Origin: Candidatus Berkelbacteria bacterium
GTDB lineage: Bacteria; Patescibacteriota; UBA1384; DTJR01
Direction of reading: 5' to 3'
Length of the DNA: 64,000 nt
Assembly: GCA_029865605.1 (NCBI GenBank)
Contig: JAOUGE010000003.1
Location: 21,797-85,796 of the forward strand
Shown here piece after piece: positions 36,081 to 41,591 of this stretch. Every line of letters begins with the position of its first letter. Positions within the stretch are counted from its first letter, which is position 1. Made by a program: the position numbers and the translations under genes. The notes under the pieces were generated by a model. That model saw nothing but the letters and a program-made list of their open reading frames with translations. It was not told where the DNA came from and ran no database searches.

Positions 36081-36695
36081 ATGACTGAAGAAGAATTATT
36101 TACCCAAGAAAAGGAAACGCCGGAAGAAACTAAAAAGCGCAGTTTTTTAGTCAACTTATTCTTTGGTTTTATCGATTTTATTAAAACGGTTGCCTTAATC
36201 ATTATTATCGCTTTCGCCATCAGGGTTTTTGCCGTCCAGCCCTTCATTGTTGAGGGTCAGTCTATGGAGCCAATGTTTAAAAACAACGATTATCTGATTA
36301 CAGAAAAAATCTTATATCGGCTAAAAGACCCTGCTAGAGGCGATGTTGTTATTTTTCACCCTCCAGAAAATCCCTCTATAAACTATATCAAGAGAGTAAT
36401 CGGGCTGCCGGGAGATGTAATCGAAATCAAAGATGGTAAGGTTTTTGTTAACAGCCAAGCCTTGAGTGAATCCTATGTTGACTCTTCAACTCTGCTTAAT
36501 CTGAAGTCCCCGCAAGCGCCGATCACGCTAAAATCCGGAGAATATTACGTTTTAGGTGACAACCGAAATCACTCAAGAGATTCGCGCGAAATAGGCGCAA
36601 TTCCAAAACAAAACATAGTTTCAAGGATTTGGTTCAGACTGCTTCCGCCGTCAAGCATAAGGATCTTTGCCCGGGTCAACTACGACACACCCTAG
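36081..36695 (+). CDS. lepB: signal peptidase I
   Basis: 204 aa; N-terminal TM; catalytic GQSMEP (Ser) and IKRVIGLPGD (Lys) boxes, GDNRNHSxDSR box. Confidence 0.85.
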   Translation: MTEEELFTQEKETPEETKKRSFLVNLFFGFIDFIKTVALIIIIAFAIRVFAVQPFIVEGQSMEPMFKNNDYLITEKILYRLKDPARGDVVIFHPPENPSINYIKRVIGLPGDVIEIKDGKVFVNSQALSESYVDSSTLLNLKSPQAPITLKSGEYYVLGDNRNHSRDSREIGAIPKQNIVSRIWFRLLPPSSIRIFARVNYDTP

Positions 36696-37759
36696 ATCTT
36701 CATTAGCTCTCTTACAAGAAGATTGAGATTCTCTTTAGATTTAGCCGAAATGGCAACAGCAGGAAGGCGAGACAAAAACTCGAACCTTGAAATGTTAGCT
36801 ATCTCATCAGCGGACTTTTCTTTTAAAAGATCAATTTTATTTAATACCAAAACCACTTTTTTGTTATTCTGAAGAGCCAGCTGAGCCAAATGAGCCTCTC
36901 CCCTCGTTAGGCCCTCAGACGCATCGGCCAAAATTAAAACTACATCGCTTGAAATAATTGCTCCGACAGACCTTAAAACGCTATACTTCTCAACTCCGGG
37001 AGTAATCTTCCCTCTGCGCCTAAAACCAGCGGTATCTATGAATTCAAAAGATCGCGACCTGTTCCCAAGCCTTACTTCATATTTTATGCTGTCACGTGTC
37101 GTGCCCGGAATATCGCTAACAATCGCTCTTTCAAATCCGACCAAGGCATTAAAAAGAGTCGATTTGCCAACGTTGGGACGGCCGACAATCGCAACTCGGG
37201 TAAGAGCCTTCTTTTCAACCTCAGCTAGGGGCAGCCTACTCGTGATCAAATCGAGAAGATTACCGCTTCTTCGGCCAGATATAGCTGAAACAGCCATTTT
37301 TTGCCGAAATCCTACGTCCCTGCTGGCTCGAACTAACTCTTCCGCCCTCATATTATCCGTTTTATTAAAAACCAATATTATTTTATCGGAGAGTTTCCTC
37401 AACCTCTTAGCAACCTGCATATCTCGAGCCGTTAGCCCCTCCTTAGCATCAACGACAAACAAAACAAGGTCGGAGCCTTCAAGAGCTGCGTCAATTTGAT
37501 CTTGGGCTTTCTTCTCAATCTCCTGCTCGCTAATGCCATAATAATCAGTCAAAAACCCGGCTGTATCGACCAAAATGAAGCCTTTCCCCTCCCATTCCAC
37601 TTTTTCAGCAACCAGATCACGGGTTGTTCCGGGCTTATGCGAGGTGATTGCCCGACGCTCACCGACTAATCTGTTAAAAAGGGTCGATTTGCCGACATTG
37701 GGTCTGCCAATAATTGAAACTATCGGTAGGTTTTTCATCTTTTGAGTTAATCTTATCAA
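36692..37759 (-). CDS. der: ribosome-biogenesis GTPase Der (EngA), two tandem G domains, no C-terminal KH domain
   Basis: 355 aa; two GRPNVGKSTLFN Walker A motifs and two DTAG motifs. Confidence 0.85.
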   Translation of the reverse strand: MIRLTQKMKNLPIVSIIGRPNVGKSTLFNRLVGERRAITSHKPGTTRDLVAEKVEWEGKGFILVDTAGFLTDYYGISEQEIEKKAQDQIDAALEGSDLVLFVVDAKEGLTARDMQVAKRLRKLSDKIILVFNKTDNMRAEELVRASRDVGFRQKMAVSAISGRRSGNLLDLITSRLPLAEVEKKALTRVAIVGRPNVGKSTLFNALVGFERAIVSDIPGTTRDSIKYEVRLGNRSRSFEFIDTAGFRRRGKITPGVEKYSVLRSVGAIISSDVVLILADASEGLTRGEAHLAQLALQNNKKVVLVLNKIDLLKEKSADEIANISRFEFLSRLPAVAISAKSKENLNLLVRELMKI

Positions 37760-37872: not shown

Positions 37873-39591
37873 ATGCCACTAGAAAAATCTTGCCGCCAGT
37901 GCAAGAACAGGTTCGTCATTGAAGATGATGAGTTAAAGTTTTTTTCAAAAATTTCCCCCCGGTTCTCAAATAAAACCTTCGAAATTCCCCCTCCGACTCT
38001 GTGTCCGGTCTGCCGTGAGATTCATCGGCTCATTCGCCGTAACGAAAGACATCTCTACAGCCGGAAATGCGACCTCTGCTCAAAACGAGTCGTCAGTATG
38101 TACTCAACCGGAAAGCCATTCCCGGTCTTTTGTCAAGAATGTTGGTGGGGCGGTAAATGGAACGCAAAAGACTATGGTGCAAAATACGAAAGCGGCTCTT
38201 TTTTTGAACAATTTAAGAAACTTTATAACAAGGTCCCCAAGGTCTGTGCCTCAATCATCAAAAGCACTAATTGCGACTTTAACACCTTTCTGGTTGATTC
38301 GAAAAATTGCTATATGACAACTTCATCAAGAGGAGAAAATTGCCTTTATTGCCGTAAGGTCGTTGATTGCCGTGATGTCGTTGACCTTCTTAACTCAAAC
38401 GAGTGCGAAAACTGCTATGAGACAATCAACTGCCATAACTGCTACGACTGCAATTTTGCAAATTTTTGCGAAAATTGTTCCAATTCGATGTTTTTATTTG
38501 CCTGCAAGGGTTGCCACAACTGTTTTATGAGCTCGAACCTGAACAACAAAAACTTCTATTTTTATAACCAGCCGCTTCCAAAGGAGGAATATTTGAAAAA
38601 GGTCAGCGAGCTCTGGAACGGCAGCTATAAAAGTCTAGAGAAACTAAAGGCGGAATACTTAGAACTTATTAAAGGCGCCACCCACAAAGAAAATACTAAC
38701 CGAAGAAGCGAGAATTGCTTAGGGAACGATCTTACAAACTGTAAAAATTGCCGGGACTGCTTTGAGATCAAAGACGGTGAAAACTGCATCTATGTTTACG
38801 ACAGCAAGGGCATAACCCCGCGCGACTCGATGGATTGCGATATGGGAGCTGGGGCCGAACTTTGCTACCAGCTTCTAAGCGGATATGTTGCCTATAGATG
38901 TATGTTCGGAGCGATCAATTATACTTCGAAAGATCTGCTCTACTGCTGCGATTGTTATGACAGTGATTTTCTTTTCGGCTGTGCTGGAATGAAAAATAGG
39001 AAATATTTTGTCTTAAACAGTGAGTATTCAAAAGAAGATTATGAAGAATTGGTCAGTAGAATAATCGCCGATATGATCGAGAATAAAGAATGGGGGGAGT
39101 ATTTCCCACTTGGCGACTCTACATTCGCTTACAATGAAGCCCTGGTTAGCATATATTTCCCTAAAACTAAACAAGAGGCTCAGAAAATCGGGGCGAACTG
39201 GCTTAATGACCACAAGGCAAAATATAAAGGGCCTTTTTATGAACCCTGCGACAGCATCTCCGACTACAAAAAATTCTCTCTCAAAAGAGACGAGCTTTTG
39301 CGAAGTGTAATCAGATGTCAGACCTCCGGCAGGCCGTTCAGAATAATCCCAAGGGAGCTCTCCTACTATATGGCAAACAATATTCCCATTCCACGCGAAC
39401 ATCCCGAAGCGAGATTTAAGAGAAGATTTTCGCTTCTTAACCCTCGCCAACTCTGGGAAAGAGATTGTATGTGCGAAGGCGAGTGCCTAAGGCACAGCGG
39501 GGAGTGCAAAACAAGGTTTAAAACGACCTATGCTCCAGAACGGCCAGAAAAGGTTTTTTGCGATAATTGCTATATTTATACGTTTAGATAA
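37873..39591 (+). CDS. large cysteine-rich protein (44 Cys), N- and C-terminal zinc-ribbon-like CxxC pairs, central tandem N-C-x2-C / C-x2-N-C repeats; function unknown
   Basis: 572-aa ORF with no recognisable SD; CRQC...CPVC, CDLC...CQEC, then NCYMT..NCLYC..DCRD..ECENCYETINCHNCYDCNFANFCENC..., C-term CMCEGEC...CKT...CDNC. Confidence 0.5.
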   Translation: MPLEKSCRQCKNRFVIEDDELKFFSKISPRFSNKTFEIPPPTLCPVCREIHRLIRRNERHLYSRKCDLCSKRVVSMYSTGKPFPVFCQECWWGGKWNAKDYGAKYESGSFFEQFKKLYNKVPKVCASIIKSTNCDFNTFLVDSKNCYMTTSSRGENCLYCRKVVDCRDVVDLLNSNECENCYETINCHNCYDCNFANFCENCSNSMFLFACKGCHNCFMSSNLNNKNFYFYNQPLPKEEYLKKVSELWNGSYKSLEKLKAEYLELIKGATHKENTNRRSENCLGNDLTNCKNCRDCFEIKDGENCIYVYDSKGITPRDSMDCDMGAGAELCYQLLSGYVAYRCMFGAINYTSKDLLYCCDCYDSDFLFGCAGMKNRKYFVLNSEYSKEDYEELVSRIIADMIENKEWGEYFPLGDSTFAYNEALVSIYFPKTKQEAQKIGANWLNDHKAKYKGPFYEPCDSISDYKKFSLKRDELLRSVIRCQTSGRPFRIIPRELSYYMANNIPIPREHPEARFKRRFSLLNPRQLWERDCMCEGECLRHSGECKTRFKTTYAPERPEKVFCDNCYIYTFR

Positions 39592-39594
39592 AAA

Positions 39595-40155
39595 TTATGC
39601 CGAGCGAACTCTGTTCAGAGTCCTAACCCACTTTTTATAAAAAGGTCTCGCAATCCTGCGGGCTTTCTCGAGTGTAATCCTGTCAAGCATAAAGTCGTAC
39701 TTTTCCCTTACCTGAACCTTCCCTATCCCCTTTTCGATCCAGCCCAAATGAATTCCGGCATTATTTTCAAAATAACTTATACTATCTGCATCCTTAATAA
39801 GATTTGATTCCTCGTCACCACCTGATTCGTGATGCGAAACCATGTTTTTAACCCTCATCGCAAACTTTTTTTCTGCGCCACAGCTGATTAGAAACTCGTA
39901 AATTTTATTTCCGGAGAGCTCTTCGTGCTTGCGCACATATCTTGGATCAACAATCTTCATTCCTCGAACGTAAAGGGGCAATCTATCAGGGGCGAAAGCC
40001 CTTCCAATGTCATGACCATACGCCGCAGCTTGCATCGCCTCGTCAGCATCAGGTTTTAATTGTAACAGCCAATAAACAGTCCTCTCAAAATGAGGCTTCT
40101 TGGAGCCAAATGACTTATCCACATATTCTCTAATTTTTTCCAAATTCCTCAACAT
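39595..40155 (-). CDS. HD-domain phosphohydrolase
   Basis: 186 aa; H...HDIGR...HHESGG...DADSISY metal-binding motif set (H, HD, H, D). Confidence 0.65.
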   Translation of the reverse strand: MLRNLEKIREYVDKSFGSKKPHFERTVYWLLQLKPDADEAMQAAAYGHDIGRAFAPDRLPLYVRGMKIVDPRYVRKHEELSGNKIYEFLISCGAEKKFAMRVKNMVSHHESGGDEESNLIKDADSISYFENNAGIHLGWIEKGIGKVQVREKYDFMLDRITLEKARRIARPFYKKWVRTLNRVRSA

Positions 40156-41426: not shown

Positions 41427-41591
41427 ATGGAAAAGTGCGAAAAATGCGGCATGCCAATGGAAGAGGGCGAGTGCTGTTCGTGCCGCCCCAGTAGGTGTTA
41501 TCACTGCTGTAAATGCGAAGACGGCTGTAGCTGTAACTGTACTAACCGCGAATTGCGCGAAATAGAAGAAGAAAAAGAAAAGAAAGAATAA
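41427..41591 (+). CDS. small cysteine-rich metallothionein-like peptide (54 aa, 13 Cys) with acidic C-terminal tail
   Basis: Not in ORF track (<60 aa). AAGGAGG SD 6 nt upstream of ATG; MEKCEKCGMPMEEGECCSCRPSRCYHCCKCEDGCSCNCTNRELREIEEEKEKKE. Confidence 0.5.
   Translation: MEKCEKCGMPMEEGECCSCRPSRCYHCCKCEDGCSCNCTNRELREIEEEKEKKE

Follow-up and report, generated by a model that had tools for sequence, protein, structure and literature searches.

LIM domains serve in protein binding, pentapeptide-repeat DNA mimics are acidic rods, and the beta-helix of the Tenebrio antifreeze protein (AFP) TmAFP is built from 12-residue coils with a small residue or Cys at every third position. In type IV secretion systems (T4SS), the tail of the coupling protein TraD binds TraM, and the Bep effector arrays of Bartonella sit next to virD4. 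Genomes of the Patescibacteria (candidate phyla radiation, CPR) are only about 1 Mb. Here we analyze a 64,000-nucleotide stretch of a Candidatus Berkelbacteria contig (the window, to which all coordinates refer unless a locus is named) and in particular one of its genes, OEV37_01495, whose 572-residue product contains 44 cysteines. An earlier note, made from the sequence of the window, had drawn attention to this protein as a possible novel metal-binding or disulfide-rich protein.

A 2025 study of Patescibacteria counted 5,713 VirD4-like type IV coupling protein (T4CP) genes in 2,918 genomes, with just 148 of them near virB4; its authors considered that these T4CPs were possibly exapted for other functions, and epibiotic growth of these host-dependent bacteria, which possess T4SS genes, did not require t4cp (PMC12102498). 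The OEV37_01495 family is not mentioned in that study. We find that the family is genetically linked to an array-terminal VirD4/TraD-like ATPase in many lineages. Our preferred reading, to which we assign a probability of about 0.4, is that OEV37_01495 and its relatives are cytoplasmic, probably non-enzymatic, zinc-stabilized scaffolds that act as paralog-specific adaptors or clients of this ATPase.

Domain organization of OEV37_01495

The domain anatomy of OEV37_01495 can be given with high confidence. The protein runs from domain A through a linker, the module M1, a cap, variable helices, the module M2, a second cap and a 'mid' region to domain A'. The features are as follows.

37873..39591 (+), complete coding sequence of OEV37_01495, 572 residues plus stop codon, backed by homologs and an AlphaFold2 (AF2) model
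37885..38037 (+), residues ~5-55, domain A, putative zinc site 1 of the zf_Tbcl type, with C7, C10, C44 and C47 (91-99% conserved)
38056..38148 (+), residues ~62-92, domain A, putative zinc site 2 of the zf_Tbcl_2 type, optional in the family and intact here, with C66, C69, C87 and C90
38158..38256 (+), residues 96-128, conserved linker with W96, F110, F111, Q113, L117 and P122
38257..38538 (+), residues 129-222, predicted solenoid module M1, acidic, built of ~12-residue coils in which every third position is Cys or a small residue
38539..38700 (+), residues 223-276, cap 1 and variable helical linker, NLxNKxY...N232...KEEY
38701..38997 (+), residues 277-375, predicted solenoid module M2, homologous to M1, ending with Y357, C361, F368, G369 and C370
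38998..39303 (+), residues 376-477, cap 2 and conserved 'mid' region, with N382, Y385, Y390, G408-E409-F411-P412, Y420-N421-E422, P430 and W443
39304..39588 (+), residues 478-572, domain A', homologous to A, with putative zinc site 2 at C532, C545, C563 and C566

Two internal duplications are evident. Residues ~1-95 (A) are homologous to residues ~478-572 (A'; hhalign probability 99.8%, E 6e-28), and residues ~129-245 (M1) to residues ~277-400 (M2; hhalign probability 99.9%, E 1e-33). The AF2 model, built from 120 homologs, is a confident single body with a predicted local distance difference test score (pLDDT) of 90.5 and a predicted template modeling score (pTM) of 0.92. An Arg-rich helix lies between the fingers in both copies, with R48, R52, R56 and N57 after site 1, together with R64, in A, and with R514, R518 and R530 in A'. 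Mean charge across the family is approximately +4 for A (both halves summed), +6.5 for A' and approximately -6 for each rod. Site 1 of A' is degenerate in OEV37_01495, with only C482 left; the four Cys of site 2 in A' are 100% conserved, and in the model the protein appears to end in this folded zinc finger, with no disordered tail. The region of residues 223-276 is the most variable of the protein (entropy 3.06) and contains two modeled helices, 237-247 and 252-267. No structural relative of cap 2 and the 'mid' region (residues 376-477) was found. The positions universally conserved in the family include no His, Ser or Lys, which makes an enzymatic role unlikely.

The central region had been described as almost periodic, and this impression could be put into numbers: Cys occupancy in M1 across homologs has an autocorrelation of 0.74 at lag 3 and 0.62 at lag 12, which implies coils of about 12 residues in which every third residue is small or Cys. 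Beta-solenoids were the sole kind of match returned by a fold search, and Foldseek gave a weak match to the LIM-like tandem finger of Stc1. Based on its sequence, each of M1 and M2 is predicted to form a narrow acidic beta-solenoid, with Cys, Ser and small hydrophobic residues pointing inward at every third position.

OEV37_01495 itself matches no Pfam family even at E up to 10 and no NCBIfam or PADLOC model, and a search of PDB sequences gave nothing significant, bearing out the earlier inability to assign it to a family. Its sole PHROG match, to phrog_15341, is marginal (E 0.007) and to a family of unknown function. The gathering cut-off of Pfam zf_Tbcl (PF13451), 24 bits, is not reached by OEV37_01495. 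This model does match 9 of 28 aligned homologs (P0046 with 26.3 bits at residues 3-50), and zf_Tbcl_2 (PF23477) matches 16 of the 28 (P0086 with 34.9 bits at residues 52-85, and P0046 at residues 521-555).

The last finger varies in one further respect. Between C532 and C545 (window 39466-39507), about 20% of family members have a 10-12-residue insert bearing extra Cys or His, for example CMCEESGHDHGGRC. The variant found in OEV37_01495 between the first two Cys of the finger is CMCEGECLRHSGEC, which includes C534, C538 and H541. The insert may represent a further small metal site.

Conservation and covariation of the cysteines

The Cys motifs read by the earlier note are all present: the N-terminal pairs C7xxC10...C44xxC47 and C66xxC69...C87xxC90, the C-terminal C532xC534...C538...C545...C563xxC566, and the dense central NCxxC and CxxCxxC runs. 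We examined which of these Cys behave as metal ligands by calculating the phi coefficient of their presence and absence across 520 non-identical homologs. Cys of the constant fingers are 91-100% conserved. C69, C87 and C90 are all-or-none, being found together in 185 homologs and jointly absent in 332-335 (phi 0.99-1.00), and positions 485 and 513 of a second optional finger covary in the same way (phi 0.97). All-or-none gain and loss of the Cys of an optional finger is the behavior expected of a tetrahedral metal site. The alignment thus points to two constant and two optional metal sites in the family, of which OEV37_01495 would keep three of the four Cys4 sites (A1, A2 and A'2). We infer that the metal bound in the terminal fingers is zinc.

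The Cys of the rods form a second class. Most are just 30-75% conserved, with Ser, Val, Leu, Ile or Ala as substitutes, and the total number of Cys per homolog ranges from 28 to 46. Their presence is uncoupled, with a maximum phi of 0.36 (background 0.006 ± 0.115), and Cys at positions i and i+6, which would face each other across a 12-residue coil, have a mean phi of -0.16 and a maximum of 0.05. This replaceability, taken with the lack of pairwise covariation, argues that the rod Cys are core-packing residues of the solenoid, and neither metal ligands nor disulfides. The proposal of a novel metal-binding or disulfide-rich protein therefore holds for one part of the molecule: the terminal CxxC pairs are zinc-finger-type sites, as judged by the Pfam matches in homologs, a match to LIM fingers and the phi values of 0.97-1.00. 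It is not borne out for the central repeats, given their 30-75% conservation, their maximum phi of 0.36 and the exclusively beta-solenoid fold matches.

Individual motifs within the rods were considered separately. OEV37_01495 contains three CxxCxxC motifs. The Cys of those at residues 187-193 and 290-296 are only 38-66% conserved. The last coil of M1 carries C211, C214 and C217 and has the family consensus C211-x2-C214-x2-C217-x2-C220, with Cys at 69, 92, 97 and 70% of the respective positions; position 220 is Ser in OEV37_01495. A ferredoxin-type [4Fe-4S] site was rejected because the CxxCxxCxxxCP motif is absent and the Cys of the CxxCxxC motifs are poorly conserved. The earlier statement that His or Pro patterns of ferredoxins and cytochromes are missing overlooked a single CxxCH (CKGCH, residues 211-215). 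The His of this motif is not conserved, with position 215 being Ser, Lys, Arg or Asn in most homologs, and there is no export signal, leading us to reject haem binding of the c-type cytochrome kind.

Family size and paralog arrays

The family is large and, as far as its members are named, confined to the Patescibacteria. A word-indexed search returned 418 homologs, every named one of which is from this group and annotated 'hypothetical'; the best 120 are almost all full-length (~545-600 residues) and share 35-50% identity. A profile search of 1.84 billion cluster representatives (50% identity) yielded 6,280 clusters with an E-value of 1e-3 or below, of which 2,574 had one of 1e-30 or below, with the top 150 all spanning essentially the whole profile. 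There are thus thousands of intact full-length homologs, and no sign in the relatives of a stop-interrupted, non-coding region. When one genome of each GTDB species was scanned, at least 583 loci were confirmed, among them loci from Peribacteria, Gracilibacteria, Paceibacterota, Saccharibacteria-labeled metagenome-assembled genomes (MAGs), Abawacabacteria, Berkelbacteria and others. No match to the family was present in 50,697 phage records and only a single 43-residue fragment in 2.9 million viral contigs, on the basis of which an origin from phages or plasmids was rejected.

Family genes typically occur in tandem arrays. Among 80 loci of up to 22 kb, 68 contain 2-9 family copies on the same strand; the gaps within arrays have a median of 108 nt and are 30 nt or less in 54 of 175 cases. 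On one complete Peribacteria chromosome of 1.306 Mb, a single locus comprises 9 copies in 14.6 kb, approximately 1.1% of the chromosome. The window has a single copy. The same Berkelbacteria MAG contains at least five paralogs, namely OEV37_01495, P0008 (OEV37_01770), P0021 (OEV37_00990) and two neighbors, with the coding regions of the P0021 trio overlapping by 4 nt. The closest relatives of OEV37_01495 (45-50% identity) sit in arrays of approximately 6-10 full-length genes.

Within arrays, adjacent and non-adjacent genes alike share about 41% identity; only 1 of 437 pairs exceeds 70%, and for 217 of 241 array members the best match is in another genome. Reciprocal best hits resolved 17 orthogroups, whose gene order is partly conserved. 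The sequence relationships indicate that the paralogs are ancient lineages that have been maintained; a recent arms-race expansion was rejected on the basis of the identities within arrays and of the best matches in other genomes. Lineages differ mainly in M1, M2 and the helical linker, and all of them conserve the heads, cap 2 and the 'mid' region. This is a regional trend only, as no strict specificity-determining positions were found above the thresholds used.

A number of arrays contain unusual members or neighbors. Truncated or split family genes are found at L164 9957-10904, L165 12863-13792 and L081 3650-5480, as pieces of ~300 residues or of 473 + 145 residues, which indicates occasional decay of individual paralogs. 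The 808-residue family member P0194, recovered by the profile search, has a degenerate last finger and is extended by ~250 residues at its C-terminus; the extension looks winged-helix-like by eye, has no Pfam match, and may reflect fusion with a neighboring regulator or gene-calling read-through. Arrays are also mixed with or flanked by genes typical of variable islands, encoding NYN-domain proteins (L001 11345-11869 by precomputed Pfam match; L069 9397-9873 and L044 7114-7773 by eye only), ORF6N/KilA-N-like and nucleotidyltransferase-like proteins, and a weakly matching HEPN_Apea-like family; further loci with such genes are L053 and L076, as well as L004, L006, L041, L070 and L073.

Linkage to a VirD4/TraD-like ATPase and a TrmB-type regulator

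To survey the neighbors of the arrays, 863 non-family open reading frames (ORFs) from 81 family-centered loci were clustered, and two recurrent neighbors emerged. The first is an ATPase of ~745 residues that matches T4SS-DNA_transf, TrwB_AAD_bind, DUF87 and TraG-D_C. It is present in 33 of the 81 loci, and 17 of its 42 copies directly follow a family gene in the same orientation. The second, found in approximately 30 of the 81 loci, is a TrmB-family helix-turn-helix protein of ~252 residues, typically encoded divergently and just upstream of the array.

The reciprocal test made use of an independent collection of 80 ATPase-centered loci from Joint Genome Institute (JGI) metagenome contigs. The family is present in 60 of these, and in 23 of the 29 that have at least 5 kb on both flanks. 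A family gene lies within 600 nt of the ATPase gene in 51 of the 80 loci and upstream of it in 42, and 184 of the 188 family ORFs share the strand of the ATPase. TrmB-like genes are present in 27 of the 80. These data demonstrate that the family is genetically linked to an array-terminal VirD4/TraD-like ATPase in many lineages.

The nearest curated families of the ATPase are VirD4-like CD1115, TraD and the archaeal DNA importer CedD, all scoring far below cut-offs. No transmembrane segment was detected in it (median maximum over 19-residue Kyte-Doolittle windows, 1.16). A conserved acidic-Phe-Pro tail is found at the C-terminus (...EE.FEEPLI; motif [ED][ED]xF[EASD][EAMP]P[LI][ILV]). In L013, L025, L076, L081 and others, and in L084-L163, a soluble N-terminal domain of ~320 residues, DUF8128 by precomputed match, replaces the transmembrane helices. 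A 756-residue variant of the ATPase in the family-centered loci (L001-L081) has no N-terminal domain; its C-terminal part holds a zf_Tbcl_2 finger (CSVCGNETFVPFEPQPGRPVYCKDC; 46.5 bits) and, beyond it, a long Pro/Lys/Glu-rich tail. Judged by its sequence, this finger would be a domain-fusion link to the family.

Proposed function and alternatives

According to the preferred reading, the family proteins would work together with the soluble, VirD4/TraD/CedD-like hexameric ATPase encoded by the last gene of the paralog arrays, each paralog being an adaptor or client. The conserved basic heads might dock on nucleic acid or on the acidic C-terminal tail of the ATPase, and the docked paralog would then display its own paralog-specific acidic solenoid surface. 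At the level of the family, a functional partnership with the ATPase has, in our judgment, somewhat better than even odds. We further infer a physical partnership and an adaptor role; the specific adaptor mechanism is doubtful as formulated. Tentatively, and as a possibility to which we give well under even odds, the family, the soluble ATPase and the TrmB-type regulator could together make up an undescribed machine specific to the Patescibacteria. In such a machine a hexameric T4CP-derived motor would have been exapted away from secretion, and about a dozen ancient zinc-fingered solenoid paralogs would be its specificity subunits, with a role, for example, in handling DNA or nucleoprotein cargo imported by cells that depend on scavenged nucleotides. 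If true, this would explain the approximately 5,700 'orphan' T4CP genes of the Patescibacteria.

Several points weigh against the adaptor proposal. Gene linkage does not amount to physical interaction. Both sets of loci were chosen by similarity to the query, so Peribacteria-like lineages are over-represented. Neither the ATPase nor the TrmB gene is found in the 64-kb window around OEV37_01495, and both are absent within the fetched flanks of the four closest arrays (L001, L083, L164 and L165); the link to the ATPase may therefore not apply in the lineage of the window. With regard to the separation of the Cys into two classes, C214, C217 and C370 are nearly invariant and hence outside the reach of the covariation test, and these residues could form one extra metal site at the end of M1 and M2.

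Of the alternatives, the one that survives best, although improbable, is that the paralogs are secreted effectors, T4SS substrates that the VirD4-like coupling protein encoded next to them would recruit and pass into the episymbiont's host cell, in the manner of the Bartonella Bep arrays. The tandem arrays directly adjoin the T4CP-like gene, T4SS substrates require no Sec signal, the conserved basic C-terminal domain could be a recognition signal, and the Patescibacteria are host-dependent and possess T4SS genes (PMC12102498). The ATPase, however, has no membrane anchor; 148 of 5,713 t4cp genes are near virB4 and t4cp is dispensable for epibiotic growth (PMC12102498); and no channel components recur near the arrays. 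The paralogs look like ancient orthologous lineages rather than fast lineage-specific expansions, and the C-terminus is predicted to be a folded zinc finger in place of a disordered tail. OEV37_01495 itself lies among housekeeping genes, and the coupling-protein linkage, strong at the level of the family, is absent for OEV37_01495 and its closest arrays.

Less probable again is a single large hetero-oligomeric structure inside the cell in which co-transcribed paralogs would be the distinct subunits, for example of stacked solenoid filaments, with the ATPase as an assembly or remodeling factor. Such a structure would be consistent with the tightly packed operons, in which stop and start codons sometimes overlap (L083: 10001-10004, 11728-11731), and with ancient, maintained paralog lineages of partly conserved order, but copy number varies widely, from 1 to 9 or more per locus, the solenoids have conserved caps, which normally block end-to-end stacking, and the high monomer pTM suggests a compact, self-contained fold.

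We regard as very unlikely a system of anti-phage or anti-plasmid defense in which the solenoid paralogs would act as sensors or as decoys such as acidic DNA mimics, with the HerA/FtsK/VirD4-like ATPase supplying the motor or effector and the TrmB protein regulating the system. The family has no match in PADLOC-DB 2.0, shows no patchy distribution, being near-ubiquitous across CPR classes and present in multiple copies, falls into old orthogroups of conserved order, and has no relatives in the phage records and one fragment in the viral contigs searched. These observations stand against a weak match of the ATPase to PADLOC mad8 (7e-14) and to HerA models, the interspersion of the arrays with NYN, ORF6N, nucleotidyltransferase and HEPN-like genes, and the acidic rods, a feature shared with pentapeptide-repeat DNA mimics.

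The least likely explanation is that the central NCxxC/CxxCxxC repeats are a novel metal array (a chain of Fe-S, Zn or Cu) or a disulfide ladder like that of the insect antifreeze beta-helix: the extreme Cys density, the three CxxCxxC motifs, a C211-C214-C217-C220 consensus that could make an in-plane Cys4 site, and a 3/12 period following the logic of Tenebrio AFP, whose i/i+6 Cys form disulfides, are outweighed by the frequent replacement of central Cys with Ser, Val, Leu, Ile or Ala and the range of 28-46 Cys per homolog, by phi values (maximum 0.36, mean -0.16 at i/i+6) that contrast with 0.97-1.00 at genuine finger sites of the same alignment, by the reducing compartment that follows from the lack of a signal peptide, and by the absence of a ferredoxin CxxCxxCxxxCP and of any CxxCH other than the one with an unconserved His.

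The gene and its surroundings in the window

The ORF at 37873..39591 (+) has an ATG start and 572 codons. By exact-sequence look-up it is OEV37_01495 (MDH4358607.1), labeled 'hypothetical protein', on a 173-kb contig of the Candidatus Berkelbacteria MAG. The product contains 44 Cys, 43 Asn and 8 His. At 7.7%, its Cys content is far beyond chance (binomial P ~2e-29), the remaining 37 long window ORFs having 0.76%. The start codon is backed by homologs, with alignments beginning at residues 1-5. No signal peptide was found, in agreement with the earlier reading, and no transmembrane helix (maximum of the 19-residue Kyte-Doolittle windows, 1.05). The protein is cytoplasmic, and the lack of a signal peptide places it in a reducing compartment. 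The gene indeed lacks a Shine-Dalgarno (SD) motif as had been remarked; this carries no information, because only 18 of the 38 window genes have an SD-like motif. Promoter and terminator scans gave chance-level results only.

The surroundings are housekeeping genes, including those for signal peptidase I, a Der-like double GTPase (divergent, upstream), an HD-domain protein and an NAD-dependent epimerase, with UvrA, rpoB/C-sized ORFs and a ribosomal-protein cluster at a greater distance. The HD-domain gene (39595..40155, minus strand) is convergent with OEV37_01495, as previously described, the two ORFs being separated by 3 nt. The Der/EngA-like GTPase (36692-37759, minus strand) has only 355 residues and a TTG start; it contains two MMR_HSR1 G domains, and the C-terminal KH-like domain usual in Der gave no match. 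At window positions ~31950-32000 gene orientation switches: nearly every long ORF before this point lies on the minus strand and nearly every one after it on the plus strand. The AT skew flips sign here, and the GC skew goes from about -0.2 to about 0. This could be a replication-related strand switch or a mere divergent operon boundary.

Another Cys-rich ORF lies at 41427-41591 (+), between the epimerase gene and a PD-(D/E)XK gene. It encodes 54 residues, 13 of them Cys (MEKCEKCGMPMEEGECCSCRPSRCYHCCKCEDGCSCNCTNREL...), with an acidic/Lys tail after the Cys-rich part, is preceded by a strong SD motif (AAGGAGG), and is annotated as OEV37_01515, 'hypothetical'. OEV37_01515 is a singleton cluster in a collection of 15 billion proteins and, from its composition, may be a metallothionein-like small protein.

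Significance and comparison with known systems

A literature search found no description of the family, its architecture or its linkage to the ATPase, and no paper mentioning the names zf_Tbcl/zf_Tbcl_2 or DUF8128; a broader keyword search gave nothing relevant. A preprint on CPR protein families has no mention of the family, VirD4, TraG or TrmB. The Cys-rich proteins of a paper on Peribacter were rejected as relatives, as they belong to a different class that is large, has signal peptides and is pappalysin-like. The building blocks, namely treble-clef/LIM-like fingers, a narrow beta-helix and a T4CP-type ATPase, are known; their combination and the gene module appear to be new.

Old, maintained paralogs that take up approximately 1.1% of a chromosome on the 1-Mb scale at a single locus imply an important and possibly lineage-specific function. 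The reciprocal linkage gives the 'orphan' VirD4-like ATPases, whose purpose is an explicit open question (PMC12102498), a concrete candidate partner. The rods would represent a natural cytoplasmic, Cys-lined narrow beta-helix that is apparently independent of disulfides, which is of relevance to protein design, and the family bears on the question of why CPR proteomes are rich in Cys. For annotation, Cys acting as metal ligands can be separated from those of the core, and the domain architecture can be converted into family models.

The family was also compared with hexapeptide-repeat proteins of the left-handed beta-helix type, acyltransferases and gamma-carbonic anhydrases. Fold scores were low (Z of 5.4 or less, Foldseek E of 0.28 or more), there is no Pfam hexapeptide match, the period of the family is 3/12 and not 6/18, and the family lacks trimer or active-site features. 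With TmAFP the family rods share the 3/12 period of Cys occupancy (a comparison made by sequence). Unlike TmAFP and the spruce budworm CfAFP (1m8n), which are secreted, OEV37_01495 is cytoplasmic; the family lacks the covarying i/i+6 Cys pairs (mean phi -0.16, maximum 0.05), no Thr-x-Thr ice-binding face can be read from the sequence of OEV37_01495, and the rods lie between zinc fingers and end in conserved NK..Y...N..SKEEY caps.

The terminal fingers can be compared with two groups of domains. They share the CxxC...CxxC ligand pattern of the 'probable treble clef' Pfam domains, zf_Tbcl covering C7..C47 and zf_Tbcl_2, with its CxxC-x(17-18)-CxxC spacing, covering C66..C90 and C532..C566. These models are themselves uncharacterized domains, however, and Pfam has no model for the pairing of fingers via an Arg-rich helix, for their duplication at both termini, or for the central 380 residues. 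With LIM domains the family shares a tandem two-zinc module and, in the last finger, the pattern 'W..C..C......T.....(V/I)YC..CY'. A profile of residues 376-572 matches LIM second fingers (CRP1, E 1.6e-4; CRP, 6.5e-4; also CRP2 and MLP); the N-terminal finger copy reaches only E 0.6-1 against LIM proteins, and Pfam LIM matches 1 of 28 members (E 0.04). The canonical LIM layout (C-x2-C-x16-23-H-x2-C then C-x2-C-x16-21-C-x2-C/H/D) was not found. LIM fingers are contiguous, with a 2-residue linker, and have His in the first site, whereas the fingers of this bacterial family lie ~18 residues apart (C47 to C66, with the Arg-rich helix between them) and have Cys as their only ligands.

The T4CPs (VirD4/TraD/TrwB and CedD) are the closest described counterparts of the linked ATPase. 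In contrast to these, the ATPase is soluble at its N-terminus (DUF8128), has no transmembrane helices and scores far below curated cut-offs, and the VirD4-like T4CP genes of the Patescibacteria are mostly not near virB4 (PMC12102498). The family proteins likewise differ from T4CP clients such as those of Bartonella (Bep) in having no BID or relaxase features. The ATPase resembles the T4CPs in its matches to T4SS-DNA_transf, TrwB_AAD_bind and TraG-D_C and in the paralog arrays directly beside its gene, and the motif at its extreme C-terminus recalls the TraD tail that binds TraM.

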